Origin: Escherichia phage CMSTMSU | Sequence record: MH494197.1 | Length of the DNA: 64,000 nt | Direction: 5' to 3' (one strand) | Translations under genes and position numbers: made by a program | The notes under the pieces: model-generated | Told to the model about the DNA's origin: nothing | The model's input: the letters and a program-made list of their open reading frames with translations, nothing else | Databases searched by the model: none | In this document: positions 42,396 through 63,729 of the stretch, one piece after another | Layout of the letters: each line of letters begins with the position of its first letter | Position numbering within the stretch: position 1 is the first letter of the stretch

Positions 42396-42690
42396 AGAGC
42401 TACCAGTACTAAGATTTTTGATAATTGTTTGTTTCTATCCCGCAGATGTTGTTGTGTAAAATGCTCACTACAAGGGTATCAAGTGCATTGTTCAGCATAA
42501 GGTTACATCCAGTACTGTTATATTTTTTAGCTCAATTAGCCACGAACAATCCGCGAGAAATTTCCCGTACTCTAGTTCATTTAGCGTATTAATGTAGTAC
42601 TTAAGTGCATTTGTCATGTACAGTTCTCCTTATATTCCTTCTATAGTACATCAGTACTGAAAGGTTGTCAAGGGTTTTCTTTTTGGGGTA

Positions 42691-42719
42691 AATATGATAT
42701 AATGAATAAAGGAGGAAAT
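42691..42719 (+). promoter_or_regulatory. conserved 5' cassette of RCC1 array unit 1: extended -10 (TGATATAAT) + AAGGAGG
   Basis: TATAAT 42698-42703, AAGGAGG 42709-42715, ATG 42720. Confidence 0.5.
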
Positions 42720-42958
42720 ATGTTACCTTTTGTAAGAATGGTTAAGTACGGGAATATTGCACCAGTACCGAAAAAATAAAGAAAGTTATAGCAGGATATG
42801 ATAATTTATATGTACTATATGGTGATGGTTCGCTATATGGTTGTGGAATCAATAACTATCAACAGTTAAATATTGATGGAACTGCTACACAAAATAATTG
42901 GGTACTAATTACCAATGGTGTTAGTAATGCATGGGCTGGTGGATACAATATTTTATAT

Positions 42959-43645
42959 TTGAAAGAAGATAAATTTATAATGCACGGAACTAATGTCTCA
43001 TTAGGTTTAGGAAATACTACAATTCCATTAGGTGGAGTAGATGTAACTTCTTCATTCCCAGATATCTCTAATATTAAAATGATATCCATTGGTTTTGATT
43101 CAATGCACTATGTTAGTGCTGATGGTACAACTGTATATGGAAGAGGTATGAACACAAATGGTTCTGTTGGTTCAGGTAGTACTTACTCACAGAGTACTTT
43201 CACTTCAGTACTGAATAATGGAACTAATCAGGTTATTGATATATTTGGTAACGTTAATAATACAGTGCTTCTAACATCGAATGGTGAGCTTCGAGCATGT
43301 GGGACAAGTGCTTATGGTTCTATAGGAAATGAAACTGGTAAGTGGACATCGTTTGGTTTAAAATTATCTGGCACTAAAATAATGGGTGGTAATGGGTATA
43401 GTACGCTTGCATATACAAATTCGGGAATGTACCACTCAGGGTGGCAGTTAAATGGGGAACTAGGAAATGGTTTAGATACTAACGTACAGGTATATCCATT
43501 TCAATTTAACTCTAAAACGATAGATAGCAAGATAGATAAAATTGCCAAATCATCATCTGGGTCATATGTTAACATGTACTCAACAACAGAAGGAAAGATA
43601 TATACGACAGGTTCGTTTGGTAAAACGGGTCAACTACTGCATTGA
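42959..43645 (+). CDS. RCC1-like repeat protein, unit 1 body (leader ATG at 42720 in another frame)
   Basis: Leader MLPFVRMVKYGNIAPVPKK stops at an A6 homopolymer; body has GxNxxGxLGxG-type repeats. Confidence 0.5.
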   Translation: MKEDKFIMHGTNVSLGLGNTTIPLGGVDVTSSFPDISNIKMISIGFDSMHYVSADGTTVYGRGMNTNGSVGSGSTYSQSTFTSVLNNGTNQVIDIFGNVNNTVLLTSNGELRACGTSAYGSIGNETGKWTSFGLKLSGTKIMGGNGYSTLAYTNSGMYHSGWQLNGELGNGLDTNVQVYPFQFNSKTIDSKIDKIAKSSSGSYVNMYSTTEGKIYTTGSFGKTGQLLH

Positions 43646-43866
43646 ATTTGTTCACCAATACATTAACACTTATAAATTACAATCCAGATACCGCCTCGTT
43701 GTATACGTGCACAAACTTCAGTGTTGTGTATGATGGTAATGAAACTATTGCTGTAAGTGGTAGTCCTACATATGTACCGAGGGCGTTGCCGCTAATAGAT
43801 GGACTACAATTCCATTACCCAAGTAATACTATGCCAGTACTTGATGCTGGCTTTTCTTTTGATTAA
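43642..43866 (+). CDS. RCC1-like unit 1 C-terminal fragment
   Basis: Frame continues through the terminator hairpin, so probably frame-disrupted. Confidence 0.35.
   Translation: MNLFTNTLTLINYNPDTASLYTCTNFSVVYDGNETIAVSGSPTYVPRALPLIDGLQFHYPSNTMPVLDAGFSFD
43833..43860 (+). terminator. rho-independent terminator
   Basis: GCCAGTActtgaTGCTGGC hairpin + TTTTCTTTT. Confidence 0.6.
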
Positions 43867-43893
43867 ATATAGTATAATGAATAAGGAGGAATT

Positions 43894-44286
43894 ATGTTAC
43901 CTTTTGTTAGAATGTTTGATTATGGGAATATAATCGAAGTTAATAATATAAAGAAAAGTGTTGTTAGTTACACTCTTGAAATGTTTCTAATGCAAGATGG
44001 CACTGTATATGCACACGGTGAAGATTCAAACTATAATGCGGGTTTAAGTACACAGTTTGTATCGTTAGGAGCAGTTCAACAAATCACAACTGAAGTTGAT
44101 GACTTATGGTTAGGATCGTTTTCCGTTGTTATTAAAGGTGATAAAATATATGGTTCAGGTTCAACATATGCATTCACGAATTCTAATACTTTCCAACAAG
44201 GATATACTGACTGGGCTGTGTATTTCACTGGTATAGATGTTACCCAAATTAAAAAATGTTATGTGGTTATACAGCATTTATATTAA
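43894..44286 (+). CDS. RCC1-like repeat protein, unit 2 N-part with conserved leader
   Basis: TATAAT-AAGGAGG-ATG cassette; MLPFVRMFDYGN. Confidence 0.5.
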   Translation: MLPFVRMFDYGNIIEVNNIKKSVVSYTLEMFLMQDGTVYAHGEDSNYNAGLSTQFVSLGAVQQITTEVDDLWLGSFSVVIKGDKIYGSGSTYAFTNSNTFQQGYTDWAVYFTGIDVTQIKKCYVVIQHLY

Positions 44287-44795
44287 TGAAAGACGGAACA
44301 CTTTATGGAAGAGGATGGAATCGAAGTGGTACATTAGGTTTAGGACATAAAAATTATGTTTCAGCGTGGACTGTACTTGACACTAATGTGGATAATATAT
44401 TTGGCGGTTACCTTGGCGATACATTGTTTAAGATTAAAAACGATGGAACTGTATATGGTTCAGGTTCAAATAACAGCTTTCAAGTTAAAGCAACATCGGG
44501 TGATGCAACCACATTTGTTCCGTTGTTTGATGATATATCTTATGATATAAAATGCAGTTTTGTTTCTGGTGTTGGTTTTGTAATGATAACATCTGATAAT
44601 AAAATATATGCAACTGGAACTACTTTTGCTGGTAGTGGTGCACATAGTAAAGTTTTTGATGTTGGTTTTACTATAGGTGATATGAGTAATATATATCATC
44701 CTGATTCGTTGGACTATTCGACTAGTGTTGTATTTTTAATTAATGCAGATACAAACAAACTAATAGCAACTGGGCATACCCATTTACGGAAGTAG
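44256..44795 (+). CDS. RCC1-like repeat protein, unit 2 body
   Basis: YGRGWNRSGTLGLG and similar repeats. Confidence 0.5.
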   Translation: MLCGYTAFILMKDGTLYGRGWNRSGTLGLGHKNYVSAWTVLDTNVDNIFGGYLGDTLFKIKNDGTVYGSGSNNSFQVKATSGDATTFVPLFDDISYDIKCSFVSGVGFVMITSDNKIYATGTTFAGSGAHSKVFDVGFTIGDMSNIYHPDSLDYSTSVVFLINADTNKLIATGHTHLRK

Positions 44796-45024
44796 TTCAA
44801 GTTCCTTCCATATTTTACAGCATTTCAAGAATTCAATTTTACATCGTTCAATTCGAATACACGATATAGTGGGTCTTTATACTGGAATACATTTTACGAA
44901 GGTAATAATGTATGGATGAATGGATATAATCCTGAAAATACGGGTGGAAAGAATTTCTCATTGTGTTCAATACCGTTAGATACTATTATTACTAAGCAAA
45001 TTGATTTACCTTTTTGAATACTAT

Positions 45025-45053
45025 GCCAGTACTCAAGTACTGGCTTTTATTTT
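45025..45053 (+). terminator. rho-independent terminator
   Basis: GCCAGTACtcaaGTACTGGC + TTTTATTTT. Confidence 0.6.
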
Positions 45054-45087
45054 ATTAAATATAGTATAATGAATAAAGGAGGGAAAT

Positions 45088-45606
45088 ATGTTACCTTTTG
45101 CAAGAATGGTTAAGTACGGGAATAAACAGCCTATTCCTGAACCAGTTGAGTTCACTGATGTTTTACAGCAACATTATACTAATGCTATGTATCTACATAA
45201 GCCCACGAATACACTATACGGTTATGGTGGTAATAACTTGAGCCAATTAGGTCTAGGGAATCAATCGACAGTTTCTACTTTTACAGTACTGGCAACGCAC
45301 TGTGCAGCCTTTTGGTTAGGCGTTCATGGCTCATTGATGATTGACTTGGATAATAGAATATATTTCACAGGGAATACAGTAGCATTCCCCGATTATGGAG
45401 ATGCAACTCCAGTTAATGGTTATTTTAGAACATGGACTGATGTTACTGCCGCATTTGACAAAATAAATGTACACGCTAATTTAATCAAGAGTGTACATAT
45501 AGGTGAAAGTACTAGAATATTACTACACGATGGAAGAGTAGTTGTTTGTGGTAAAATGCAAATGCCGAATGTGGAACAGGTAACCAAAATCCCATACCAG
45601 TACTAA
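45088..45606 (+). CDS. RCC1-like repeat protein, unit 3 N-part with leader
   Basis: MLPFARMVKYGN; YGYGGNNLSQLGLGN. Confidence 0.5.
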   Translation: MLPFARMVKYGNKQPIPEPVEFTDVLQQHYTNAMYLHKPTNTLYGYGGNNLSQLGLGNQSTVSTFTVLATHCAAFWLGVHGSLMIDLDNRIYFTGNTVAFPDYGDATPVNGYFRTWTDVTAAFDKINVHANLIKSVHIGESTRILLHDGRVVVCGKMQMPNVEQVTKIPYQY

Positions 45607-45784
45607 CAGTTGTTACTGGTATGGGTGAAGTTCTCAATTGGCGTGTTCATTACAGGGTACGCACTATCTCAAAACAAATAAAGAAGCATGGTTTTGTGGT
45701 AAGGATAACTTTGGTGAAAGTGGTGCTGGGACTAGCTCATACGTTTTACTAATAAGTTAATACGATCCAACGTCGATTATATAA

Positions 45785-46273
45785 GTGCTACTTATGATGT
45801 TACGGTGGTTCACTGCCGGTAGGGTGTACTGGAGTGGTAGAAACAATTCTGGACAAGCTGGGAATGGTACTACTTCAACCACAAACCAATTAACTACAGT
45901 TCAGAATTCACAGGTTATAGTGAATATTAGTGATGGTTTCCTGTGTCCTAGTAATATGGGTAACTCAACAATTGGTGCACCTATGGCTCAATACCCATCA
46001 TATGTCAGAGTGCAGGCATCAATACATATGGTCAAGAAGGGACGGAAATACAACAGTAATTACTTCGTGGGGGCGTTTTCTTTAAGTGCGATACAGGGTG
46101 GATATGACAATGTTCTTATGGCATCCAAAGACTGGTCCAGAACAATAATTATAACTAAAGATTATAAATTATATGCATGTGGGGGCTTTAACGGTTCAGG
46201 TGGTAACTTACCGGATGGTACTTCCGTAATTAAAACATTAACATTAATGCCAACGCAGTTATGGCAATCATAG
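45785..46273 (+). CDS. RCC1-like repeat protein, unit 3 C-part
   Basis: WSGRNNSGQAGNG repeat. Confidence 0.45.
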   Translation: MLLMMLRWFTAGRVYWSGRNNSGQAGNGTTSTTNQLTTVQNSQVIVNISDGFLCPSNMGNSTIGAPMAQYPSYVRVQASIHMVKKGRKYNSNYFVGAFSLSAIQGGYDNVLMASKDWSRTIIITKDYKLYACGGFNGSGGNLPDGTSVIKTLTLMPTQLWQS

Positions 46274-46282
46274 GAGAAAATC

Positions 46283-47404
46283 ATGTTACCTTTTGTTAGA
46301 ATGTTTGATTATGGAAATGAAGCACCTGATCCTAGTTCGGGATTTCGAATAATAAGTACAGGAGACGCATTACTATTAATTACTAAGAGTGGTGATTTGT
46401 GGGTGCGTGGTTATAACCGTTATGGCAAGTTAGGTATAGGTAATAACACCACTACCTATGTACTTGATTGGACGAAGGTTAGAAGTGATGTAAAGTTTGC
46501 GTGTGGTAGTGGATTGGTAACAGTTATCTTTACTAAGGGTAATCGCATATTGTACTGTGGTGACAAATGGTTTGAAACGGGTGGTGTTGGTAGTGCACAG
46601 ATTTTCACATGGACAGATGTTACGCACCAATTTGGGGCAGTAGATTTGAGTACAGTAAGGGATATGAAAATGTCTTATTACACGATTGGATTATTGACTA
46701 CTAATAATCAATTATACGCTAAGGGATATGATAATAACCTATCATTTGGTGGGGTTAGTAATAAGGCGACTGCTGTGTTTATTGCGAATAATGTACAAGA
46801 GTTGTATACGAGTTTAGTTAGTACAATCTACGTTGATACAAGTGGTATATTACATCGTTGTGGCATGAGTGATAACGGTTCGTTGGGTAATAATGTTAAT
46901 TTAACTTCGTATCTAAGTTATTCACAGACTGGTATGACGATTAAGGACATTGGAATGATGACTACGAACACTGGGTTATTATATACTGATTCTAGTGCAC
47001 GCACGAGATATTTTATTGCTGGACAGAACTTGAATAAACAGATGGGTAATGCGGCGGCTGCGAGTGCCATTACGAGTACTTACACAGAGCTTTCTGGTAG
47101 TGTTGATAAGTTTTCTTCTTTATGGGCGAATGATGGGATATTGATGACATTTGCTGTGGGTAAGAACACTAATCAGTTATTTTATGCTGGGATGAATACT
47201 TTTCATGCGAGTGGTGGTGTATCTTCATATGCGGATACATATGAGTTAGTCCCGATGGTGTTTAATGACATACAGGAAGTGTTATGTGCACAGCGTTTAT
47301 CGGTGGTACATGATTCTACGAAGTGGTATTACTGTGGTGATGCTAATTCAATGTATGGTTTACCGGACGTAAGTACTTTTACTGAGTTACCGTTGCCCTT
47401 TTAA
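46283..47404 (+). CDS. RCC1-like beta-propeller repeat protein (intact, 373 aa)
   Basis: Leader MLPFVRMFDYGN; about seven ~50-aa repeats (e.g. WVRGYNRYGKLGIGN); stop immediately before a hairpin terminator. Confidence 0.7.
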   Translation: MLPFVRMFDYGNEAPDPSSGFRIISTGDALLLITKSGDLWVRGYNRYGKLGIGNNTTTYVLDWTKVRSDVKFACGSGLVTVIFTKGNRILYCGDKWFETGGVGSAQIFTWTDVTHQFGAVDLSTVRDMKMSYYTIGLLTTNNQLYAKGYDNNLSFGGVSNKATAVFIANNVQELYTSLVSTIYVDTSGILHRCGMSDNGSLGNNVNLTSYLSYSQTGMTIKDIGMMTTNTGLLYTDSSARTRYFIAGQNLNKQMGNAAAASAITSTYTELSGSVDKFSSLWANDGILMTFAVGKNTNQLFYAGMNTFHASGGVSSYADTYELVPMVFNDIQEVLCAQRLSVVHDSTKWYYCGDANSMYGLPDVSTFTELPLPF

Positions 47405-47411
47405 TAATAGG

Positions 47412-47440
47412 TCAGTACTGAAATATGTACTGGTATTTTT
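47412..47440 (+). terminator. rho-independent terminator
   Basis: CAGTACTGaaatatGTACTGG + TATTTTT. Confidence 0.5.
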
Positions 47441-47476
47441 GTAAATACTATATAATTTAATTACGGAGATTTTATT

Positions 47477-48049
47477 ATGTTACCTTTTGTTAGAATGTTT
47501 GATTATGGGAACGTCGTTGAGCGACCTGTGGGTACACGTTATACCTGTAGTGACTATAGTGCGACTTATAGTTTAATAAAGGATGGTGTGTTATATGTAT
47601 CTGGGATGAATAACTATTATCAGTTAGGTAATAACACTAACGTAACACGTTACAACGAGTGGTTAAAAGTTCCAGAGACTGATAGTGTTAAGTTTTGTAG
47701 TACTGGTTATAGTCAGACAATGTATATTACTAACAATGGGAGGATAATGATAGCTGGTGAAGATCCTACTTCCAGTGCGACGGCGGTAAGTGTTAAGGTA
47801 TGGACTGATATAACTTCTAGATTTAGTGCAGTTGATACAAAGAAGATTGTTTATATTTCAATAGAACGCTTTGGTGTAATGATGATCATGCAAGATGGTT
47901 CAGTATGGGCGTGTGGAGTTGATAATACTGGTTGGAGTGGGCAGGAAGTAAAACTGTTGGTTTCTTTACTTTCAGACAAATATACACCGGAAGTGCAGGA
48001 AGTGCAGTTGCTGGTACTGCTGGTACTGGTACTGCGAGAATTCTGTTAG
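47477..48049 (+). CDS. RCC1-like repeat protein, unit 5 N-part with leader
   Basis: MLPFVRMFDYGN; YVSGMNNYYQLGNN. Confidence 0.5.
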   Translation: MLPFVRMFDYGNVVERPVGTRYTCSDYSATYSLIKDGVLYVSGMNNYYQLGNNTNVTRYNEWLKVPETDSVKFCSTGYSQTMYITNNGRIMIAGEDPTSSATAVSVKVWTDITSRFSAVDTKKIVYISIERFGVMMIMQDGSVWACGVDNTGWSGQEVKLLVSLLSDKYTPEVQEVQLLVLLVLVLREFC

Positions 48050-48320
48050 CTAATGGAACAATCTTGTCCGCTGGTACTAATACATATCATCAATGTAATG
48101 CTAGTACTGATCCGGCTGTTCTAACATTCACTGAATCATTCCACGGGTTGATCCTTCATTGATATATCAAATCAAGATGTGTAATAACAACTGTATTATA
48201 TTTTGAGTGATAAGAGATATTACGGTACTGGCTGGGAAGTTTTGGTGCATTGGGTGATGGTGATATTACGGGTTCGAATAATAAATTCTATGCAGGTACA
48301 TTGTCAGTTGCTCCTAAAAC

Positions 48321-48653
48321 ATGCGTGCTTATATGTCGTATCTATGTAGTTCTTCTGGGGATTCTAGTATGTACATAGGCGATGATAATTTCATATACAC
48401 CTGCGGTTATCGTGGGAGGAACTTAATAAATGCCACTACAGATATTGGTACGTTCACGAAATGCATTCAAAGTGCACAAGGATACAAGAATGGACTTATA
48501 TATAGTGGGAATTATTGTGCTGTAGTTTTTGATCCAGATTTGGGTTCAGGAATGTCATATGCGGTTTCATCACCAAAATTGAATGCACCAGCACCACAGG
48601 CGAGTGTTCCAACATTGGGTATGAGTTCGTTACAAGCTATTATTTTACCATAA
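48321..48653 (+). CDS. RCC1-like unit 5 C-terminal fragment
   Basis: Ends just before terminator 48661-48690. Confidence 0.4.
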   Translation: MRAYMSYLCSSSGDSSMYIGDDNFIYTCGYRGRNLINATTDIGTFTKCIQSAQGYKNGLIYSGNYCAVVFDPDLGSGMSYAVSSPKLNAPAPQASVPTLGMSSLQAIILP

Positions 48654-48660
48654 CATTATA

Positions 48661-48690
48661 CCAGTACTGAAATATGTGCTGGTATTTTTT
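48661..48690 (+). terminator. rho-independent terminator
   Basis: CCAGTACtgaaatatGTGCTGG + TATTTTTTT. Confidence 0.5.
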
Positions 48691-48815
48691 TAAATACATT
48701 ATAATTATTATATGGAGATTTTAGTTATGTTACCTTTTGTAAGAATGTTTGATTATGGGAATACAGTGGCTGCTCCCACTGGTATAAAGGATTTCAAGCA
48801 AATGGAAGCCACTGT

Positions 48816-49211
48816 ATGGCACTAACATATAGTGGTGAGATGTGGGCTTATGGTACAAGTACAAGTGGATCAATGGGAACCGGATTCACGGTGGGTGCTG
48901 CTGATAAGGGTTGGTACAAGTCTAACATTAGTAATGTTAAATCATTCAGTTCTAATATGCAGACTAGCACAGTGGCTTTGACAAATGATGATAGAGTGCT
49001 AGTTTGTGGCTCAACTAGATTTGACAAATTCAGTACTCCAGATATTGCATCATCTAACCTTGATTGGTTGGATGTTACTGATCATATTCCACAGGAAGTT
49101 ATTGATGCTGGGATGAAGCAAGTTATTAACCACGTATATTATGTTGCCATTTTACTGAAAACAATCTATTATATAGTGTGGCATTATCTTTGGGTAATAC
49201 TAGTACTATAA
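48816..49211 (+). CDS. RCC1-like repeat protein, unit 6 fragment (leader ATG at 48726)
   Basis: Leader MLPFVRMFDYGNTVAAPTG… terminates early in a different frame. Confidence 0.45.
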   Translation: MALTYSGEMWAYGTSTSGSMGTGFTVGAADKGWYKSNISNVKSFSSNMQTSTVALTNDDRVLVCGSTRFDKFSTPDIASSNLDWLDVTDHIPQEVIDAGMKQVINHVYYVAILLKTIYYIVWHYLWVILVL

Positions 49212-49310
49212 TAGATAGAACATGGAGAAGAAATACATTTGGTGATATACAAGTTGAACGTGTTGTTTCGTTGACACAAACCCCAAGTGGTCCTTTGTGT
49301 ATAGTTCAAG

Positions 49311-50324
49311 ATGCAGACGGATACCAGTATGGTATTGGATATAATGGTAATAAGATTATTGATAATACTTCCACTAATTCATATTCTGTATATACCAAAA
49401 TGGGTACACTTCCTTACAATGAATTTGCCATATCGAATAGCGGGAAATTCAGTTCAGCGGTATTATCAGATGGGAGAAGTGTTTATAGTGGTACATTTCC
49501 AAAGTCATTCAATAATAGTTTTGGTTCATTTTGAAAGTTGGTGCGGTATCAGATACTGTGTTTGGTTTAGATGCAAAAATATGCGTGGTCAATATGGTCA
49601 AAATCAATTACCAATTGCGTCGGCTGATAACAATGCAAGTAATGGCGTTGTGAACCTTCGTAATGTTCCAGCGGGAACACAAACGAAAGACATTCGATTT
49701 ATATGCGGAAATGATGTAAAGAACGTTTATATCATATACACAAATGAAGACGGCATTAGCTCATTTTATGGATTGGGACCAAACTTTGATCAAAATTCCT
49801 CAACATATGCACAATTCGTCAAAGTGGATTTGCGGGGCATTATCAAATTAAGGAGAGAAATATGTTACCTTTTGTTAGATTGTTTGATTATGGGAATATC
49901 ACACGGTCCTAAAAATATAATTAAAGTTGGTGCTTCTACACAGGGTCAATTCTTATTGACAGATTCACATGATTTATATTACATAGGTAGAAATCAAGGT
50001 GGTGAATCTGGAAATGGAAATACCAACACAGTATCCTCATGGATATTAGTAAGTACAGATGTTTCTAATTTTTTCGTGGGTGATCGTACACTTGTTATTA
50101 TTAAAAATGATAATACGATATGGTCATCAGGTCAAACGTACTGGTTCACATCTTCCACAACTACTTCTTACAGTACTGTATTAGTTGATAGAACCAGTTG
50201 GTTTACCAATGCCATACCAGTAAGTGAAATTGCTGATATAGTATGTTCGTATGGTTTAATATTTGTACTTAGCACTAGTTCAGTACTCTATGGTGCAGGG
50301 CTAATGGATATCGTGGTGCTTTAG
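49311..50324 (+). CDS. composite ORF spanning units 6/7 (RCC1-like, frame-disrupted; internal leader ATG at 49862)
   Basis: Internal aaggagagaaatATGttaccttttgttaga leader in another frame. Confidence 0.4.
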   Translation: MQTDTSMVLDIMVIRLLIILPLIHILYIPKWVHFLTMNLPYRIAGNSVQRYYQMGEVFIVVHFQSHSIIVLVHFESWCGIRYCVWFRCKNMRGQYGQNQLPIASADNNASNGVVNLRNVPAGTQTKDIRFICGNDVKNVYIIYTNEDGISSFYGLGPNFDQNSSTYAQFVKVDLRGIIKLRREICYLLLDCLIMGISHGPKNIIKVGASTQGQFLLTDSHDLYYIGRNQGGESGNGNTNTVSSWILVSTDVSNFFVGDRTLVIIKNDNTIWSSGQTYWFTSSTTTSYSTVLVDRTSWFTNAIPVSEIADIVCSYGLIFVLSTSSVLYGAGLMDIVVL

Positions 50325-50966: not shown

Positions 50967-50993
50967 GCCAGTACTTGATACTGGCTTTTCTTT
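50967..50993 (+). terminator. rho-independent terminator
   Basis: GCCAGTActtgaTACTGGC + TTTTCTTT. Confidence 0.6.
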
Positions 50994-55604: not shown

Positions 55605-55884
55605 TATACTAGTTACGAGTTCTGGTGTATATGCAACAGGTTTAAATGCGAGTAGTTATGCTGGTTCATTGGGTGTTGGTTCTAATGTTACCATTGGTAA
55701 ATTTACTGCATGTCCATTGCCGTCAGAAATAACATATTCTATGTATGATAAAATAAAAATATATCGAGGGTCGTTACGTACTTTCCTAACTGCTGATATG
55801 AAAAATATATATTCAACCGGAACTTATGATGATGGTGGTCCTAGTACAAATAGATATGTACTGGATACACCTAGACAATTGTAA
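55567..55884 (+). CDS. RCC1-like unit 11 C-terminal fragment
   Basis: Ends before terminator 55889-55916. Confidence 0.45.
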   Translation: MYSIHTGYPAQSSILVTSSGVYATGLNASSYAGSLGVGSNVTIGKFTACPLPSEITYSMYDKIKIYRGSLRTFLTADMKNIYSTGTYDDGGPSTNRYVLDTPRQL

Positions 55885-55888
55885 AAAA

Positions 55889-55916
55889 GCCAGTATCAAG
55901 TACTGGCTTTTCTTTG
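55889..55916 (+). terminator. rho-independent terminator
   Basis: GCCAGTAtcaaGTACTGGC + TTTTCTTT. Confidence 0.6.
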
Positions 55917-55948
55917 TTAAATATAGTATAATGAATAAAGGAGGAATT

Positions 55949-56164
55949 ATGTTACCTTTTGCTAGAATGGTTAAGTACGGGAATAAAATTGAATATAAGC
56001 CACATGGTGAACAATTAATCACGACAATAGGAACAACACAATTTACAGTTCCTGCTGGCGTTACCGAAATATCAGTATGTGTTATTTCGCCGGTGGTCAA
56101 CGTGGTGCTGGCGGCGGCTTATCGTGGCGTAATAATATTCCGGTTTCTGGTGGTGAGTACTTAA
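55949..56164 (+). CDS. leader-bearing N-part of unit 12 (same MLPFARMVKYGN leader, non-RCC1 body)
   Basis: Track ORF 55826 trimmed to the SD-supported ATG; …TTIGTTQFTVPAGVTEISVCVIS. Confidence 0.45.
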   Translation: MLPFARMVKYGNKIEYKPHGEQLITTIGTTQFTVPAGVTEISVCVISPVVNVVLAAAYRGVIIFRFLVVST

Positions 56165-56683
56165 GTGTTTCTCTTACATCCCAACACTACTACAGCAGTT
56201 GAAAACGGTTTATATCGTGGAACTGAAAAACTATGTGTTAGCTTCACTGGTGCATATACGGTTGGTGGACTAGGTGGAAAAGCTGCTAACGCTATTAATG
56301 ATGGTGGTGGTAATGGTGGCAACACTGGTTTAAGTGGTGGTGCAGTCATTGGTGGTGGTGCTGGTGGCTACACTGGTAAAGGTGGTAACGGAAATGCAAT
56401 CACTGGTGAAAATGGTGCTGGGGGCGGCGGTGGTGGTGGTGCATTCTATAATACCTCGTTCATTGGTACGGGTGGTGGTACTGGTATCATTGTTCAAGGT
56501 GCTAATGGTATTGGTGGTAGCTACGATGGTTCATATAATGGTGGTGCTGGTAGTGGTGGTGCTGGTAATAGGTATGGTGGTGGTGGTAGTATATGGGATA
56601 ATTCTTCTTATACGGCGGCTGGTGGTGGTGCTGTGCGAATAATATGGGGACGTGGGAGATATTATCCTAATAATTCAGTCTAA
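56165..56683 (+). CDS. glycine-rich domain protein (C-part of unit 12)
   Basis: Long GGxGGxG tracts (GGGAGGYTGKGGNGNAITGENGAGGGGGGG…); ends at the terminator. Confidence 0.5.
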   Translation: MFLLHPNTTTAVENGLYRGTEKLCVSFTGAYTVGGLGGKAANAINDGGGNGGNTGLSGGAVIGGGAGGYTGKGGNGNAITGENGAGGGGGGGAFYNTSFIGTGGGTGIIVQGANGIGGSYDGSYNGGAGSGGAGNRYGGGGSIWDNSSYTAAGGGAVRIIWGRGRYYPNNSV

Positions 56684-56690
56684 AATATAG

Positions 56691-56716
56691 GCCAGTACTT
56701 GATACTGGCTTTTCTT
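56691..56716 (+). terminator. rho-independent terminator
   Basis: GCCAGTActtgaTACTGGC + TTTTCTTT. Confidence 0.6.
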
Positions 56717-56752
56717 TGAATTAAATATAGTATAATGAATAAAGGAGGAAAT

Positions 56753-57907
56753 ATGTTACCTTTTGTTAGAATGTTTGATTACGGGAATATTGCACCTGAA
56801 GCTCCAAAGATAAAGAAAGTACTGTGCGGTCTTGATAATTTGTACGTCCTCTATGACGATGGCTCACTTTATGGTTGTGGGGTTAATTCGTATTTTCAGT
56901 TAAACGTTACAAATACAGCAACAAGAAATACTTGGATATTAATTTCAGAAGGTGTTACTGATGCATGGGCTGGGGCGTACAATATTCTTTATATCAAGGG
57001 TGAAGAATTCATAATGCATGGAGTTACCACACAATTAGGCACAGGAAATACTATGATTCCGTTGGGTGGTTTGAATGTTACTTCTTCATTTCCACATATA
57101 TCTAATATTAAAATGATATCAATCGGTGCAGATACAATGCACTACGTTGATGCTAGTGGTTCGATTGTTTATGGTAGAGGCATGAATGGTAACTATTCAC
57201 TCGGTGGTGGGTATTCCACGGCTCAGAGTACTTTTGTTTCAGTTATTAATACCGGAGCTAATACAGTCCTTGATATATTGGGTACACAGAATAACACATT
57301 AATATTAACATCAAATGGTGAACTTCTCGGTTGTGGGAGTAGTGAGTATGGCTCACTTGGCGTAAGTCAAGGACAGTATACTACACTAGTAAGCAGGTTA
57401 ACCAGTGTTAAACTGTTTGGTGGTAACAGTACTGGTACTCTTGCTTATTCAGCCAGCAATATATACAACGCAGGTTGGCAGTATGTTGGTCAACTTGGTA
57501 ACGGTATTACAACGAACACACTAGTATATCCATTTGCATTTAACTCCACTACTATTGATAGTAACATACATAAAATATCAAAATCAAGTACATCTTCACG
57601 TGTTAATATGTACGCAACAACCGAAGGAAAGATATATAGTACTGGTGAATTTGGTAGAAATGGTTCTGGTGGTAGTTTGAGTAGATTCACCAATACACTA
57701 ACTTTAGATAATTACAACCCAGAAAAATCAGCATTATACACATGTGCACATTTTAGTATAGTATTTGATGGTAATAATCAAATTTATGCTTGTGGTTCTT
57801 TTTGTATGTGCGTTCTATTACCACGAACTCATGGTCTGCAATTACAATGCCGAAATGATACTATAAAACTATGCCAGTACTTGATGCTGGCATTTCTTTT
57901 GTATTAA
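56753..57907 (+). CDS. RCC1-like beta-propeller repeat protein, unit 13 (near-intact; extreme C-terminus probably frame-disrupted)
   Basis: Track ORF 56735 trimmed to the SD-supported ATG; close paralog of unit 1; ORF reads through the terminator hairpin. Confidence 0.6.
   Translation: MLPFVRMFDYGNIAPEAPKIKKVLCGLDNLYVLYDDGSLYGCGVNSYFQLNVTNTATRNTWILISEGVTDAWAGAYNILYIKGEEFIMHGVTTQLGTGNTMIPLGGLNVTSSFPHISNIKMISIGADTMHYVDASGSIVYGRGMNGNYSLGGGYSTAQSTFVSVINTGANTVLDILGTQNNTLILTSNGELLGCGSSEYGSLGVSQGQYTTLVSRLTSVKLFGGNSTGTLAYSASNIYNAGWQYVGQLGNGITTNTLVYPFAFNSTTIDSNIHKISKSSTSSRVNMYATTEGKIYSTGEFGRNGSGGSLSRFTNTLTLDNYNPEKSALYTCAHFSIVFDGNNQIYACGSFCMCVLLPRTHGLQLQCRNDTIKLCQYLMLAFLLY
57873..57900 (+). terminator. 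rho-independent terminator
   Basis: GCCAGTActtgaTGCTGGC + ATTTCTTTT. Confidence 0.55.
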
Positions 57908-58305
57908 ATATAGTATAATGAATAAAGGAGGAAAATATGTTACCTTTTGCAAGAATGGTTAAGTACGGAAATAAAAGACCATCTAATAATATCAAAAGAT
58001 TTCATGTACAACCAATAACAGTGTTTTGGTGCTCACCGAAAGTGGAGATTTGTATGGTTTTGGATTCAATTCAGGTGGTGAACTTGGCACTGGTGCAAAA
58101 CTAGTGTTACTTCAGTTATTCAAATTGACACTGGAGTTGATGATGTATGGGGTGGTAGTCTATGTGCAATGTACAGAAAAGGCGATGAATTCTTTGGCAG
58201 CGGGACGGTTCTTATTATGGTTCAAGTGCTGTTAACTCAACCACATTTGTAAATGTAACACACATATTCCAAGATATAGATATTCTTAATATTAAGAAAA
58301 TTAAA

Positions 58306-59070
58306 ATGACAACAGGTTTGTTTATATTAATGCAAAACGGCAACTTATATGGATGTGGGGTAAACACCAATTGTCAATTTGGTACTGGTGAGGCAGTGAA
58401 TTTTCGTTATCCTATAGCTACATTAACACAAACGGATGTTGTTGATTTTGATATTTTAGGAAACTCTAGTATAATATTAAAGACCGATGGGTACATGTAC
58501 AGTGCGGGTGATAATGGTCGTGGACAACTTGGTAGTTCTACTGCAACCACACTTCTGGTATATACACAAATTAGTAAATTTCCAAACGTAACCAATTTGG
58601 ATCTGTTCGGACACTCACAAGTTACTTCATTATTCAAAGATAGTGATGGTAAAACGTGGTTGAGTGGTAATAGTTATGGTATTGATTACCCAGTAGTAGC
58701 TACAACATTATTCAGTAAAGAAGCACCAGTACCTGAAGGTACATTTCGTTTTATCAACACAAGGGCAGGGTCAAATACACCAATAATATGTACACCCACT
58801 GGGTATTATGTTGCTGGTACTAACCCTTATGGTGCATATGGTATAGGTACGAATGTAACTCTGACAACATTCACAAGAATGGATTCTATGGATAGATACA
58901 TATCTGATTATAATAATGTTCCTGTTTTCGATGGATGTTTCTATGGGACATATTTTGCAGTTGGGGAACGTCTGTTTGGTGCAGGTAATGGTAATACTGG
59001 TAATGTTCCGGATATACTGGATCACAGCGTAACTATGTGGAAATTAATTATAAAAATAATTAAACCTTAA
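58306..59070 (+). CDS. RCC1-like repeat protein, unit 14 body (leader ATG at 57937)
   Basis: YGCGVNTNCQFGTG, GDNGRGQLGSS repeats. Confidence 0.5.
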   Translation: MTTGLFILMQNGNLYGCGVNTNCQFGTGEAVNFRYPIATLTQTDVVDFDILGNSSIILKTDGYMYSAGDNGRGQLGSSTATTLLVYTQISKFPNVTNLDLFGHSQVTSLFKDSDGKTWLSGNSYGIDYPVVATTLFSKEAPVPEGTFRFINTRAGSNTPIICTPTGYYVAGTNPYGAYGIGTNVTLTTFTRMDSMDRYISDYNNVPVFDGCFYGTYFAVGERLFGAGNGNTGNVPDILDHSVTMWKLIIKIIKP

Positions 59071-59076: not shown

Positions 59077-59103
59077 GCCAGTACTTGATACTGGCTTTTC
59101 TTT
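59077..59103 (+). terminator. rho-independent terminator
   Basis: GCCAGTActtgaTACTGGC + TTTTCTTT. Confidence 0.6.
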
Positions 59104-59435
59104 GGTTAAATATAGTATAAAGAATAAAGGAGGGAATTATGTTACCTTTTGCTAGAATGGTTAAGTACGGGAATACTATACCCAAACCCGCTGGTGTGAA
59201 GAAAATTAGTACTTCCATTAATCACGTTGGGATGTTATTCGATAATGGAAATTTATATCTACGTGGGGTGGTGGTGAGTATAAGTTAGGAAATGACAGTA
59301 CTGGATTCGTACAGAATGGTTGGGTTAAGTGTCCATATAGCGTTGCTGATGTTTGGTGCTTCACTTACGCGACAATTATACTTACTACAAGTGGTGAATT
59401 ATACTTAGCTGGACAATTGGGTTATGTTGGTGTAG

Positions 59436-59849
59436 TTGCAGCGAGCGTACGGATGGACTAATATTACATCTAATTTATCCTCAATACCTGCACTTAGTAC
59501 TATACAAAACATAGCTTATACTGAGACTACAATTTACAATGGTGCTATATTAATTTTGTTAAGCAACGGGGACTTATATGGTATAGGTCGTAATGGTGGT
59601 GGTGTATTAGGCGTTTCTGGAATCCAATCAACTGCACTTAAGATTGACACAGGTGTTACTTTAATTGCTGGCACAGACCGTTCAGCGGCGTTACATTATG
59701 TGAAAAATGGTCAATACTACAGATGTGGGAATAATTCTCGCTACAACCTAGGAACAAGCTCTTCTGTTTTATCTACATTTACGGTAAGTACAGATATCAC
59801 AGGAACCGTACTGGGATTGCATGTACTACAAATGCGACTTCAGTACTGA
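59436..59849 (+). CDS. RCC1-like repeat protein, unit 15 fragment (leader ATG at 59139)
   Basis: YGIGRNGGGVLGVSG. Confidence 0.45.
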   Translation: MQRAYGWTNITSNLSSIPALSTIQNIAYTETTIYNGAILILLSNGDLYGIGRNGGGVLGVSGIQSTALKIDTGVTLIAGTDRSAALHYVKNGQYYRCGNNSRYNLGTSSSVLSTFTVSTDITGTVLGLHVLQMRLQY

Positions 59850-59872
59850 CATCATATAATGGTACTATTAGA

Positions 59873-60205
59873 GTGTATAGTGCTGGGACGAATACCGATT
59901 ATACGTTAGGTATTGGTTATGGAGATACCAGTATAATAATGAGTCCATTTAGTGCTACACCTCCAATTTATGGTATTGTACCAGATGCGGCATCACTGAA
60001 TAATTCTTGTATTAATTCTAATATGATTGCGATGACACAGGGTGGTAAATTGTATACATGTGGTAATGGTGTTGCTCTTGGTAGAGAAATCACTGCATCG
60101 ACACCTAGAACGGCGTACTATCCAGTACTATTTGAGGATTCAAATACTGCACTTGATGTTAATGCTTTTGCAGTGCAGGGGGTTCCGGTGTGTTATACGC
60201 ATTAG
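59873..60205 (+). CDS. RCC1-like unit 15 C-terminal fragment
   Basis: Same unit, different frame. Confidence 0.4.
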   Translation: MYSAGTNTDYTLGIGYGDTSIIMSPFSATPPIYGIVPDAASLNNSCINSNMIAMTQGGKLYTCGNGVALGREITASTPRTAYYPVLFEDSNTALDVNAFAVQGVPVCYTH

Positions 60206-60317
60206 TGGGGGCAAATGAGGTTTACTGGTGTGGTAGTGGTTCTATGTTCCGGAACAGAGTGCAGGTACACAACAAGTTAAAATGAAGAAAATGATTTTAC
60301 CAGAATAGGAGGAAAAT

Positions 60318-60773
60318 ATGTTACCTTTTGCAAGAATGGTTAAGTACGGGAATATAAAAGTAAAGAGTACTATCCAAAAAGTTATCCTTGGTGGTGGTGG
60401 TCAATGTGTGGTAACATTACTCAGTGATGGTAGAGTGTATGGACGTGGATACAATACAACATATGGGTTGGGTACTGGTACAACAACATTCGTAAGTGAT
60501 TGGGTATTAATGGGCGATAATATTGTTGATATCCATTCAAATGGTGTTACTGGCACATTCCTTATTACCAAAGAAAATAGAATTTTGTATTCTGGTTTTG
60601 CGACACCAATCAATGGCACAACATCACATTATACACGTTTCACTGATTTAACATCAACTGTATTTGCTGCGGTGGATGTTAGTAATATTAAAACAATTAC
60701 GGGAAATGGTAATGTTACAATGGTTCTTTTGAATGATGGTTCACTTTATGGGAGTGCAAATACAGGGTTATAG
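60318..60773 (+). CDS. RCC1-like repeat protein, unit 16 N-part with leader
   Basis: MLPFARMVKYGN; YGRGYNTTYGLGTG. Confidence 0.5.
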   Translation: MLPFARMVKYGNIKVKSTIQKVILGGGGQCVVTLLSDGRVYGRGYNTTYGLGTGTTTFVSDWVLMGDNIVDIHSNGVTGTFLITKENRILYSGFATPINGTTSHYTRFTDLTSTVFAAVDVSNIKTITGNGNVTMVLLNDGSLYGSANTGL

Positions 60774-60882
60774 GTAATGGTAGTAACGTTGCATTATCAA
60801 CACAAACATATGTGACTAATGATGTGCGTGATGTGAAAACATATCCATCAATGAACACTATAACAAAAATAATAATCAAATA

Positions 60883-61449
60883 TTGGCTAGTGGTATTTTA
60901 TACCAAGGCGTGAACGGTACAAATTCATCAATAAACACGTCTTCATATACATTACTGTACACATTACCGAGTTCTGATTGTTTTCAATTTGCATTTGATA
61001 CATATACATTTGGATATGTTGACCCTAGTACTAACACTTCTTATATAAGAGGTATACCAATAAATGGTTCATTAGGTAATGGCGTTACTAATAATACAGC
61101 AGTTACAACATGGGTTACTAAAGTTTGGAATACACCAATTGATAGTTCTATACCTAATAAATCATATACAACTAACCATGTCTCCTTGTTCAATGATGGA
61201 AACTTATGGACAACTGGTGCATCTAGTGTCGGCTATTCCAATGGTACAAATAGCACAACAGCTAATACATGGACCAGTTCATCTAATTTACCATTCAACA
61301 CTAATAACATAACAGACTATGCTTTTGGTGGTAGTATTACTGTGGTGGTAATCGACTATAGGACTATGTACATACTAGCTAACAACGCCATTGCTGGTAC
61401 TGCTACGACAACTTATAAATTTGAGCCATATAATTCTCCACCAGTTTAA
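60883..61449 (+). CDS. RCC1-like unit 16 C-part
   Basis: Ends right before the bidirectional hairpin at 61456-61474. Confidence 0.45.
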   Translation: MASGILYQGVNGTNSSINTSSYTLLYTLPSSDCFQFAFDTYTFGYVDPSTNTSYIRGIPINGSLGNGVTNNTAVTTWVTKVWNTPIDSSIPNKSYTTNHVSLFNDGNLWTTGASSVGYSNGTNSTTANTWTSSSNLPFNTNNITDYAFGGSITVVVIDYRTMYILANNAIAGTATTTYKFEPYNSPPV

Positions 61450-61455: not shown

Positions 61456-61481
61456 GCCAGTACTATGTACTGGCTTTCTTT
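61456..61481 (+). terminator. terminator hairpin between convergent genes
   Basis: GCCAGTACtatGTACTGGC + TTTCTTT; minus gene 61480..61857 ends on the other side. Confidence 0.55.
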
Positions 61482-61857
61482 ACATATTATATAATGTGAA
61501 TGCTGTCACTTTACCAGTTGTTGTTAGTTCATTATAAAGATACTCCAATATTCTCGCACACTCTAAGTATATCTCGATATCATCATGAATAAGTGAGTAC
61601 TGAAATAGCTGTTCTTCAGATAATTTGTATTGACTTCCTTTTAATGAATTGAGAATATCTTTCACATCATCAAGTACTGGGTAAAGTACGAAATCTTCAT
61701 CATATTTTGAAGCAATAAATTCAAATCCACCACCATCAGTACTAGATATACCAATCAGTACTTTATCAACCAAGTTAATGTTTATATAACGGTTGTGATT
61801 TGGGTGAATTGAAATCTCAAACATACGAGTACTGTTACAATCAACATCAATATACAA
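61480..61857 (-). CDS. hypothetical protein, FQ-motif family
   Basis: LSEEQLFQYSLIHDDIEIYL; isolated family member inside the RCC1 array. Confidence 0.5.
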   Translation of the reverse strand: MYIDVDCNSTRMFEISIHPNHNRYININLVDKVLIGISSTDGGGFEFIASKYDEDFVLYPVLDDVKDILNSLKGSQYKLSEEQLFQYSLIHDDIEIYLECARILEYLYNELTTTGKVTAFTLYNM

Positions 61858-61903
61858 ATATACATCGTTGAATTTATAAGTTAAGCAACCGTACTCAAGA
61901 AAA

Positions 61904-62128
61904 TCAGAGCAAATAATTGATGAGTTTTTCTCGTCTCTGCGTAATGCATCTTGATATTCTTTTCACGCATAAGTAATTCGAACTTTGCACTAAACTTGCC
62001 ACCAGTAAGATAATTAGTATTAGGACGTTTGTAACTTGCAACTGGTCGGTGGGATGATGTAAAGTATTTTTTGTGAATCGTTTCTGTTTAGTGAAATATT
62101 CTTGATAGAACTTACTTCTTTTATTCAT
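61904..62128 (-). CDS. hypothetical protein (possibly frame-disrupted)
   Basis: Track ORF co-directional with 61480..61857. Confidence 0.35.
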   Translation of the reverse strand: MNKRSKFYQEYFTKQKRFTKNTLHHPTDQLQVTNVLILIILLVASLVQSSNYLCVKRISRCITQRREKLINYLL

Positions 62129-62342
62129 GAGTACCTCAATTAAATCGCTGTAAAATTGTACATTATAAAATGATTAAATAAAGTATAACACAAGGAGATT
62201 TTATCATGTTACCTTTCGTATTGTTATTTGATTATGGGAACGAAAAACAAGAAAGTTCTTATGATGTTAGTGTATATGGAAACAATAACTACATTTTAAA
62301 TAAACAAACTGGAAACCTTTTTGCATCCGGTGCTGCGCATTC

Positions 62343-62945
62343 ATGGGTGATAACACAGTTAAGTATTATATTACCCAAATAGAATCAAATGTTCATAGCT
62401 GTGAGATAGGTTTCCTATCATCATGGATAATTAAGAAGGACAAAACTGTTTTCATTTTAGGAAACAAAAGCAGTATTGGATTAACTGATTCGACAACATC
62501 ATGGTTCGAAATTACAAACTTATTTTCTGCTGTTCCTGAAATATGGGACAACCTATTTGAATGTAAAGTTCAATTGGGATATAACTGCATACGTGTTATG
62601 ACACCACTAGGATCAATATATGCGATTGGTACAAACACTTATGGTGCATTGGGTACTGGTACTACATCCTCATCCACTTCGTTCGTTAAAAGTGGTGCTG
62701 TGGATGCTGTACGCATGGAATCAACAGAACGTTCAGTGTTCTATCAAAACAGTTCTGGACAATGGTTTGGATGTGGTGATAACACATATGGTATACTAGG
62801 TCTAGGAACTACCGCTAGTCGTGTAAACTCATACACCGCACCAGTATGGACTAATGCAGAAGCTGTTAGCTTCTCTAACCGTGGATCATATACAGCCTCA
62901 ATGGTACTCTATACTCATGTGGTGACAAAGTTAATGGTCAGCTAG
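62343..62945 (+). CDS. RCC1-like repeat protein, unit 17 body (leader ATG at 62208, MLPFVLLFDYGN)
   Basis: YGALGTGTTSS, YGILGLGTTAS repeats. Confidence 0.45.
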   Translation: MGDNTVKYYITQIESNVHSCEIGFLSSWIIKKDKTVFILGNKSSIGLTDSTTSWFEITNLFSAVPEIWDNLFECKVQLGYNCIRVMTPLGSIYAIGTNTYGALGTGTTSSSTSFVKSGAVDAVRMESTERSVFYQNSSGQWFGCGDNTYGILGLGTTASRVNSYTAPVWTNAEAVSFSNRGSYTASMVLYTHVVTKLMVS

Positions 62946-63312
62946 GGATGGATATACACAAAGCATAGACGCTGCCGAGCACACCATACACCATAGGAAC
63001 CGCATTCCAAATTGGTAAGGCAATAACATCAGCTACACAAGCATCAGCCAACGTATTCATTGGTAAAGATAATAAGTTCTATGGTACTGGTAGTATTGCT
63101 GCTGGTATAAATGGTAGTACTAGTGCTGCATTAAGTAAAGTTACTGCGTTATCAGCATCACTACCACCTGACATTACATACAATGATATTATATCATTTA
63201 ATACAGGGACCGTAACTTTTATTCAAGCAAAGGACAACTATATTATGTTGGTAGAAGAACTTACATAGATAATAGTTCAGACGTTACCACACAGTTCAGT
63301 GTAATTGGTGGA

Positions 63313-63729
63313 TTAGATAATTAAAATTAATCCAGTACTATTATAGTACTGGATTTTTATTATAACATACGTTTTTACGAATAGTATTGTGGATATTTTT
63401 AAGTAGTTCACACCTTTACACAACCCATAAAATACACCAGCACATACACCAAATGCAGGTATCATACATGCAAACATCGTTATCAATTCCCACATCTCCA
63501 TACCATCTTGATTCGGTCCAAGGTCAAAGATAACAACCAAAACCAAACCTGTGATACTTAGCATATAATATGCCATGAAGATAATAAAAGAAACAATACC
63601 AACATCAGAGCGAACTGAATTTAGCATATTATATACTGGGGTTACACAGAAGTAATACAATAACCAAATCAAAGAACCTAAACTAAACACAATAATAGTA
63701 ATGATTGAAAATATTTCACGATAACTCAT
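63313..63729 (-). CDS. multi-pass membrane protein
   Basis: Several ~20-aa hydrophobic segments. Confidence 0.5.
   Translation of the reverse strand: MSYREIFSIITIIVFSLGSLIWLLYYFCVTPVYNMLNSVRSDVGIVSFIIFMAYYMLSITGLVLVVIFDLGPNQDGMEMWELITMFACMIPAFGVCAGVFYGLCKGVNYLKISTILFVKTYVIIKIQYYNSTGLILII
63331..63358 (+). terminator. terminator hairpin at end of RCC1 array
   Basis: TCCAGTACTattatAGTACTGGA + TTTTTAT. Confidence 0.5.

Follow-up and report, generated by a model that had tools for sequence, protein, structure and literature searches.

A 64,000-nucleotide (nt) stretch of the genome of Escherichia phage CMSTMSU (record MH494197.1; hereafter the window) contains 17 tandem plus-strand genes, at positions 42720-63324, whose products share a 12-residue N-terminal leader on far-diverged bodies. 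On balance, we favour reading this array as a repertoire of interchangeable virion-displayed binding modules with a common N-terminal docking tag. The reading is carried by the anatomy of the array, the folds of its products, selection at the level of the leader peptide, recombination joints and association of the products with virions, the last from published proteomics. GenBank labels such as 'regulators of chromosome condensation' and 'DNA condensation proteins' have steered speculation toward DNA packaging and protection. The evidence favours a different role for these genes: they would encode tagged, modular, virion-associated binding proteins, and a cassette at their junctions would drive exchange between phages.

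In the scheme we propose, each product would consist of the 12-residue tag, a short linker that usually contains proline, and a globular body that binds a ligand. Being a free tail, the tag would most likely dock all products to one shared acceptor on the particle, and the virion would thereby bear a mixed set of adhesin-like modules. Nearly every Asteriusvirus gene of the array would form an autonomous cassette made of a terminator hairpin, the promoter-like element TAAATAnnnTATAAT, a ribosome-binding site (RBS) and the leader. This common stretch of ~100 nt would supply homology for recombination between co-infecting phages, by which whole modules would be inserted, deleted, reordered and exchanged in a manner resembling the PeSL (promoter-early stem-loop) cassettes of T4-type phages. 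The modules would be external and bind host-surface or environmental ligands, with a possible part in adsorption or host range.

A common leader on divergent bodies

The window derives from an Asteriusvirus-type jumbo coliphage of the PBECO4/121Q/phAPEC6 group, in which the array takes up ~5% of a 350-kb genome. Megablast matched the window to 36 records of related phages of E. coli and Salmonella, with fEgEco12 as the closest relative (~97% identity across half of the region). Every unit of the array starts with MLPF[V/A]R[M/L][F/V][D/K]YGN. We found 17 matches to this pattern, all inside the array (span 42720-62241; the leaders begin at the unit starts of Table 1), against 0 in 100 shuffles, in agreement with an earlier note on this DNA that had described a tandem array of about 17 genes with a common leader. 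An alignment of 16 units gave a mean pairwise nucleotide identity of 0.99 at nt 1-12 and 0.81-0.83 at nt 13-36, which fell to 0.42 at nt 37-48 and then to 0.17-0.39, so that the drop right after codon 12 expected in that note is present. Identity upstream of the start codon (-71 to 0) was 0.33-0.68. Over their bodies, paralogs are 17-24% identical in protein and ~30% in nucleotides. M1, P3, F4, Y10, G11 and N12 were invariant in a protein alignment of 30 paralogs; among 69 leaders from five genomes, M1, L2, P3, F4, Y10, G11 and N12 were constant, R6, Y10, G11 and N12 varied synonymously, and the variable positions 7 and 8 were always hydrophobic. Two details of the earlier description have to be revised. 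The two leader alleles do not alternate significantly along the array (12 runs against 9.5 expected, P=0.16), and the x-x-P-x-P linker said to be usual occurs in only 25 of 54 clean paralogs, although a proline no more than 10 residues from YGN is found in 50 of them.

The leader is not confined to Asteriusviruses. Matches from residue 1 were obtained by tblastn in other jumbo-phage genera, and the consensus across the clade is M-[LIF]-P-[FI]-x-[RKI]-[IML]-hydrophobic-x-Y-[GA]-N. GAP32 has two tagged genes, with MLPFSRIIQYGN on its only RCC1 protein and MLPFARIFRYGD on a 210-residue 'virion structural protein'. Yersinia phage fHe-Yen9-04 has five in tandem (e.g. MLPFPVIVKYGN), Xanthomonas phage XaC1 has three (e.g. 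MFPIPIISKYGN), and at least 15 genes of Salmonella phage Munch begin MIPF[TAPS][RK][IML]xxY[GA]N. The tagged genes of the last three phages mostly overlap or lie 8-10 nt apart and lack the cassette. Synonymous sites are free in Munch, where P3 is encoded by CCA in 11 genes, CCG in 3 and CCT in 1, and G11 by all four codons. Synonymous drift without a cassette indicates that conservation of the leader is independent of gene conversion and of a regulatory cassette, and selection at the level of the peptide is clear from these comparisons. In Asteriusviruses, synonymous sites of the leader are far more uniform than codon usage of the bodies predicts: P3 is CCT in 69 of 69 leaders versus 28% in bodies, and GGT for G11 occurs in 0 leaders versus 61% in bodies. 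In all, the 12 residues head otherwise unrelated proteins of four body types in at least five genera. Conservation across genera, attachment to four unrelated bodies, free synonymous drift and detection in virions give indirect support to the suggestion of the earlier note that the leader is a functional tag. Outside the array, the leader was not found in the window, in 170 kb of phAPEC6 or in a scan of a 121Q contig; a 40-residue profile containing the leader matched four fragments only in a large protein database, and a scan of IMG/VR returned 121Q itself and nothing else.

Sixteen of the bodies in the window are RCC1-like and one is a glycine-rich, fibre-tip-like protein, so that the description of all units as RCC1-like holds except at 55949, which encodes the latter (245 residues). 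Structure prediction confirmed an RCC1-like seven-bladed propeller fold. The AlphaFold2 model of unit 4 (46283) has a confidence score (pLDDT) of 90, with residues 1-19 below 50, and a second model one of 91.6, with residues 1-10 below 50. The best Foldseek matches were UVR8, HERC2 RLD/RLD2, RCC1 and RPGR, with template-modelling (TM) scores of 0.65-0.78 and E values down to 6.5e-21. Some paralogs match PF13540 or PF00415 above the gathering score (38.3 and 50.2 bits); PF25390 is matched with E of 1e-12 to 1e-24, but under its 150-bit cutoff, and phrog_4219 with E of 1e-40 to 1e-63. Profile and structural matches thus agree with the earlier assignment to RCC1-type propellers. The array proteins resemble RCC1, UVR8, the HERC2 RLD and RPGR in propeller architecture (TM ~0.75) and, for some paralogs, in RCC1 repeat signatures; they differ from this superfamily in sequence (~14-17% identity), in their phage virion context and in giving no sign of Ran-GEF or chromatin function. 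Since both AlphaFold2 models leave leader and linker unplaced, the leader is predicted to be a free tail and not part of the propeller fold. The idea that it closes the propeller as a 'Velcro' strand was rejected, as its residues score below 50 in both models while the bodies are modelled with confidence. A profile search of 1.8 billion proteins recovered generic RCC1-like giants alone, and its best matches mostly begin past the leader (from profile position 12 onward; two start at 6). The RCC1-type propeller is a generic binding scaffold present in over 140,000 proteins.

Other folds occur under the same tag. Besides RCC1 propellers, tagged bodies include phrog_6011 'virion structural protein' and a Laminin_G_3/ConA-like lectin (PF13385; 36.7 bits against a cutoff of 27.6), and outside Asteriusvirus the tag also heads ConA-like lectin and glycine-rich bodies. 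These non-propeller folds resemble distal tail-fibre, brush and spike modules and lectins. Unit 12 may be compared with the tail fibre gp24 of cyanophage Pam3 and with glycine-rich adhesin tips of T-even/S16 gp38 type (PMC9608196), the helical baseplate-docking domain of gp24 being replaced by the 12-residue leader. Glycine-rich homologs in unrelated phages of ~150 kb (P0164-P0207, L010) have a different N-terminus with a short motif of their own, M[LI]E[LMT][LM]; one of them, P0175, begins MLPFPIMIHREN, like the leader form of the Yersinia phage. On one such ~150-kb contig, the glycine-rich gene precedes those for terminase, portal, protease and capsid by three genes. The bodies are functional, old paralogs under purifying selection, with a ratio of nonsynonymous to synonymous substitution (dN/dS) of 0.13-0.26.

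Most units appear broken in the window because it carries uncorrected nanopore-type basecalling errors at Dcm sites and homopolymers. CCWGG (Dcm) sites number 0 in the 64 kb versus 0.44-1.7 per kb in relatives, and those of the reference show as deletions of 1-2 nt in the window. Such short deletions, at A/T/G homopolymers or CCWGG, make up 97 of 111 indels against fEgEco12, and A/T runs of at least 6 are several-fold depleted (~1.5- to 4-fold across relatives). Absence of CCWGG together with shortened homopolymers is the signature of uncorrected nanopore basecalling, and therefore any open reading frame (ORF) call in the window is suspect. Only ~4 units are open, and all 17 cover a full-length reference protein end to end via 0-4 frame switches. 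The matching fEgEco12 locus has 15 intact plus-strand genes in a row, of 245-397 codons each, annotated as 'chromosome condensation regulator' or 'putative DNA condensation protein'. Real pseudogenes and programmed frameshifts were ruled out on these grounds, and the 'intact copies' singled out before (units 4 and 8) are merely units that escaped the errors. Frame problems seem to affect the deposited phAPEC6 sequence as well. We counted 15 leader starts in MK817115.1 (348957-352535 and 1-14189), and the phAPEC6 paper counts eleven RCC1-like proteins (PMC7247149). No coding sequence (CDS) is annotated at the leader starts of the units at 3, 2434, 6063 and 7325, and the leader start at 3614 falls within the N-terminally extended CDS gp002.

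Junction cassettes and exchange of modules

A hairpin with stem GCCAGTACT..GTACTGGC and a T-run is found at 13 plus-strand junctions, with free energies (dG) of -8 to -13 kcal/mol and z scores of -2.2 to -4.9. At these junctions the order is hairpin, T-run, TAAATAnnnTATAAT and an AAGGAGG-type RBS. TAAATAnnnTATAAT occurs in 13 exact copies, all within the array and 0 elsewhere in the window. The earlier note had given every unit TATAAT, RBS and hairpin; this fails for the units at 46283, 49862 and 60318, which adjoin the preceding gene and have the RBS only. Its correlation of RBS form (GGAGG or GGAGGG) with leader allele reflects the error-prone length of a G-run and is absent from the clean fEgEco12 sequence. 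No sigma70 -35 element was found at the array cassettes despite the TATAAT there, and a sigma70 scan showed no enrichment (80 found versus 97 expected). The array motif also differs from sigma70-like cassettes at 17-37 kb of the window. A GCTTT at about -30 may be a MotA-box-like element. Outside the array, 170 kb of phAPEC6 contain a single copy of TAAATAnnnTATAAT (L008 26429-26466), located 22 nt before gp077; this plus-strand gene stands isolated and encodes a 43-kDa protein that is well detected in virions (10 peptides). We considered gp077 as a leader-tagged protein, given its similar size and shared motif, and rejected it because it lacks the leader.

The cassette with the leader is a recombination joint, as judged from comparison with related phages. 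Homology blocks between the window and fEgEco12 start or stop within ATG-62..ATG+51, mostly ATG-11..ATG+51, and units are reordered between the two phages, some being present in one only. Leaders on bodies of 92-98% nucleotide identity differ at 5-8 of their 36 positions, and the step in identity falls precisely behind codon 12 or 13. The body of unit 46283 is 98.2% identical to that of a unit in the divergent 236-kb phage contig L003, and its leader differs at 8 of 36 positions; unit 56753 and phAPEC6 gp009 likewise combine similar bodies with different leaders, with the step at the leader. Breaks of homology at the leader and the pairing of one body with different leader alleles thus mark the cassette as the joint. 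In a comparison of fEgEco12 with L003, 8 of 15 units lack an ortholog, and synonymous divergence (dS) between orthologous bodies spans 0.03-0.89. Cassettes of the window fall into type A, with the stem GCCAGTACT..GTACTGGC, and type B, which departs from it by a compensatory G-C to A-T change in the outer hairpin pair. Those of L003 are type B throughout; the type B stem is ACCAGTACT..GTACTGGT at unit 6 and in L003, and begins with GTCAGTACT.. at unit 5 of the window. As type B goes with the two units whose bodies are nearest to the divergent L003, import of whole cassettes is suggested.

It had been proposed earlier that recombination or gene conversion keeps the 5' cassette uniform while the propeller bodies diversify. 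The joints uphold recombination at the cassette; gene conversion alone fails to explain the leader, because peptide-level selection is clear. Nor do the bodies appear to diversify in place: as their dN/dS indicates, they are conserved, and they are gained, lost and exchanged as whole cassettes. PeSL of T4-type phages (PMC2839356, PMC4122927) are similar in that composites of terminator, promoter and RBS are repeated between non-essential genes, and in that joints between related phages, both indels and replacements, fall inside the cassettes. They differ in two respects: 1) the array element, whose promoter activity is predicted, is not of the sigma70 -35/-10 early type; and 2) homology at the array reaches 36 nt into coding sequence, as a selected peptide. 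The array is thus a case of PeSL-like shuffling that extends into coding sequence.

Virion association and the role of the leader

Published proteomics place array proteins in virions. In phAPEC6, gp003, 005, 006, 007, 009, 010, 549 and 551 were detected in the virion (PMC7247149), and we found that all eight bear the leader (enrichment P = 6e-5 to 2e-6). LC-MS/MS of JP4 virions lists three leader proteins, and GAP32_001 was identified by mass spectrometry (MS) (PMC5259590). The array and its virion association are already in the literature, which treats the products as DNA-condensation factors. Descriptions of the leader, of its conservation across the clade on several folds and of the cassette as joint are absent from the papers we searched and read, which is not proof of absence.

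A docking role has precedents among branched receptor-binding protein systems. N-terminal 'conserved peptides' of 7-11 residues are present in the K1-5/K1E/SP6 group (PMC6872550), and the docking-peptide role was shown experimentally for KP32, K11 and KP34 (PMC13352976). In these groups, as in KP32, KP34, Menlow and PhiK64-1 (same two sources), each phage group keeps a short N-terminal peptide (here 12 residues), distinct from that of other groups, on binding proteins that are unrelated apart from it; a virion carries several proteins with the tag, and modules are exchanged horizontally. The array departs from them in its cargo, which consists of monomer-sized propellers, lectin-like and glycine-rich modules and not of trimeric beta-helix tailspikes. 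It also comprises as many as 17 tagged genes, is located outside the tail module, and its docking is inferred by analogy.

Several observations weigh against the docking interpretation. MS of phAPEC6 virions gave only 1-5 peptides per paralog, which points to low copy number or loose association. The array is flanked by small function-unassigned genes, far from head and tail modules; in phAPEC6 the head and baseplate modules lie ~140-180 kb away and lack the leader. The promoter-like motif is neither the T4-type late TATAAATA of phAPEC6 head and baseplate genes nor of sigma70 early type, and both classes were rejected for it. We identified no acceptor protein, gp244 and gp245 being without Pfam matches, and no T4gp10-like partner; the giant virion protein gp245, considered as a repeated acceptor, has no internal repeats. 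Phage CBB has 'hairy' whiskers but lacks any RCC1 homolog, which weakens a link of the array to 'hairy' fibres, the most evident candidate structure, and these are probably not explained by it. RCC1 propellers are not known to act as adhesins in any phage.

Alternatively, the leader may have no address on the virion and be kept for expression or biogenesis, as a translation-initiation element, a regulator or chaperone site, or recombination homology, with virion detection due to co-purification. We consider this unlikely, although it retains the most credit among the alternatives. The first 13 nt are nearly invariant in Asteriusviruses, synonymous sites included, beyond codon bias; the cassette is demonstrably a recombination joint; and MS peptide counts are low. 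Recognition by a chaperone may also be a role of the leader. Outside Asteriusvirus, however, the peptide is conserved despite free nucleotide drift, and this extends to Y10-G11-N12, which lie 30 nt from the start codon. GAP32 keeps the tag with just two tagged genes, as do the tandem sets of fHe-Yen9-04 and Munch without a promoter/terminator cassette. Three independent virion proteomes contain array proteins, and for phAPEC6 the enrichment is strong.

The main rival to a docking peptide that would stay on the mature protein is, with slightly less credit than the preceding alternative and unlikely all the same, a T4-style capsid-targeting sequence, by which the proteins would enter the prohead core, be packaged with DNA and be injected as diversified effectors, for example in anti-defence. 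The earlier note had drawn this analogy, and part of it holds: T-even internal proteins are highly diverse virion proteins with only an N-terminal capsid-targeting sequence of ~10 residues in common, encoded at a highly plastic locus (PMC3012670). Low abundance of array proteins in virions would fit, as would the inner body of unassigned composition and the gp21-like prohead protease of phAPEC6, and the position of a glycine-rich homolog just upstream of terminase, portal and capsid genes in one ~150-kb phage. The array leader, however, is unrelated in sequence to that of T-even internal proteins and lacks the L/I-x-E protease site; no conserved Glu or cleavage motif exists in or after it, position 9 being D/K/E/N/T and position 13 variable. 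The products are large (40 kDa), non-basic (isoelectric point 4.9-8.2, K+R 5.9%) and rich in G/T/S/N, unlike the small basic internal proteins. Their non-propeller folds match external tail-fibre, brush and spike modules and lectins, and a proline-rich tether suits display over a cleaved signal. Without a conserved cleavage site and with cargo folds of external type, capsid targeting fits less well than docking.

That the products condense DNA or organise chromosomes, as database names imply, is very improbable. The fold is truly RCC1-like, and the authors of the phAPEC6 paper proposed ordering of packaged DNA (PMC7247149). But the name is inherited from eukaryotic RCC1, the profiles match the propeller alone, and the same leader heads lectin-like and fibre-tip-like bodies without a DNA link. 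The acidic-to-neutral composition is a poor fit to a DNA-condensing role, and the lack of basic character argues against DNA binding. Plain recent tandem duplication, in which the common 5' end would mark young copies, suits the tandem arrangement and a literature that names duplication as a route to jumbo genomes, but is refuted by the identity profile (leader 81-99% in nucleotides, bodies ~30%) and by orthologs common to several genera.

Should the tag be a docking peptide, it would offer a handle to find the acceptor and to locate the proteins on the particle, would allow tests of adsorption and host-range extension in therapeutic jumbo coliphages, and could be used to display foreign domains on jumbo phages. 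A bolder extension of the docking interpretation is possible, though we would not call it probable: the tag may be a universal plug across giant enterobacterial and Xanthomonas phage genera, by which any binding domain is mounted on one socket. Asteriusvirus particles would then be coated with a mixed, rapidly reshuffled set of as many as 17 different adhesin-like modules, and the 'DNA condensation proteins' would be a polyvalent adsorption system and an engineerable display platform.

Array map and other repeats in the window

Coordinates of the units and junctions are collected in Table 1.

Table 1. Units of the array and elements at their junctions, in window positions.
Feature	Position	Strand	Remarks
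Unit 1, RCC1-like	42720..43826	+	leader MLPFVRMVKYGN (hybrid allele); 3 frame switches, breaks at homopolymer deletions; ortholog fEgEco12 g594, 99% over most of length
Unit 2, RCC1-like	43894..45017	+	leader MLPFVRMFDYGN; no close fEgEco12 ortholog; best reference L003 unit 15, 59-67% amino-acid identity
Unit 3, RCC1-like	45088..46273	+	leader MLPFARMVKYGN; ortholog fEgEco12 g591
Unit 4, RCC1-like	46283..47404	+	uninterrupted ORF, 373 residues; 9 nt past unit 3, no promoter or hairpin
Unit 5, RCC1-like	47477..48653	+	type B cassette upstream
Unit 6, RCC1-like	48727..49853	+	type B cassette; body 98.9% identical to unit of divergent phage contig L003
Unit 7, RCC1-like	49862..50960	+	leader MLPFVRLFDYGN; adjoins unit 6
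Unit 8, RCC1-like	51029..52198	+	uninterrupted ORF, 389 residues; ortholog is virion-detected phAPEC6 gp010
Unit 9, RCC1-like	52266..53418	+	
Unit 10, RCC1-like	53489..54626	+	ortholog is virion-detected phAPEC6 gp005
Unit 11, RCC1-like	54696..55884	+	
Unit 12, TNF-like and glycine-rich, not RCC1	55949..56683	+	245 residues; same leader as other units
Unit 13, RCC1-like	56753..57858	+	ortholog is virion-detected phAPEC6 gp009, leader allele differs
Unit 14, RCC1-like	57937..59063	+	
Unit 15, RCC1-like	59139..60308	+	no close fEgEco12 ortholog
Unit 16, RCC1-like	60318..61449	+	adjoins unit 15
Gene between units 16 and 17	61480..62128	-	fEgEco12 g581; phrog_34359; function unassigned; split by errors in the window
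Unit 17, RCC1-like	62206..63324	+	degenerate leader MLPFVLLFDYGN, kept as such in fEgEco12
Promoter-like motif TAAATATGATATAAT and RBS before unit 1	42689..42719	+	
Junction cassette	43833..43893	+	hairpin, T-run, TAAATATAGTATAAT, RBS
Junction cassette, type A	45025..45087	+	dG -13.2 kcal/mol
Junction cassette, type B	47411..47476	+	GTCAGTACT..GTACTGGT hairpin, TAAATACTATATAAT, GGAGATTTTATT
Junction cassette, type B	48658..48726	+	
Junction cassettes, type A	50967..51028; 52204..52265; 53426..53488; 54633..54695	+	
Junction cassettes, type A	55885..55948; 56689..56752; 57871..57936	+	
Junction cassette, type A	59077..59138	+	-10-like element TATAAA
Bidirectional hairpin	61456..61474	.	after unit 16 and the minus-strand gene
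Degenerate promoter-like motif (TAAATAAAGTATAAC) and RBS before unit 17	62175..62205	+	

The minus-strand phrog_34359 gene keeps its position within the array in fEgEco12. In phAPEC6, gp011c is a minus-strand gene of similar size that follows the last annotated array gene; the comparison is one of size and position.

Other repeated elements are present upstream of the array. On the minus strand at 17100-37000, at least 30 copies of an intergenic cassette of ~70 nt precede many small genes. Read on that strand, it consists of TTGCAA/TTGACA, ~17 nt, TATAAT and then a GGGGAGAAnnnTTCTCCC hairpin overlapping the RBS and start. By sequence these look like PeSL-type early promoter cassettes, and the set may correspond to the 121Q 'array of more than 30 similar genes' (PMC5646251). 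Four small minus-strand genes at 13086-15967 share a 5' end (reverse complement ATGCAAATGATTAATTTAAGTAAAGATGAATAT, MQMINLSKDEY) and would make up another paralog family in which the N-terminus is conserved. The motif TGATAGTT(A/T)GTTCC occurs in 7 copies at 11183-14594. At 40821-41629 and 38094-39796, in a region of small minus-strand ORFs directly before the array, there are a repeat of ~190-nt period (5 copies) and related repeats of 45-83 nt. At ~38 kb, ~4.7 kb before the array, GC skew becomes positive, although the ORFs listed at 38000-42700 are on the minus strand.

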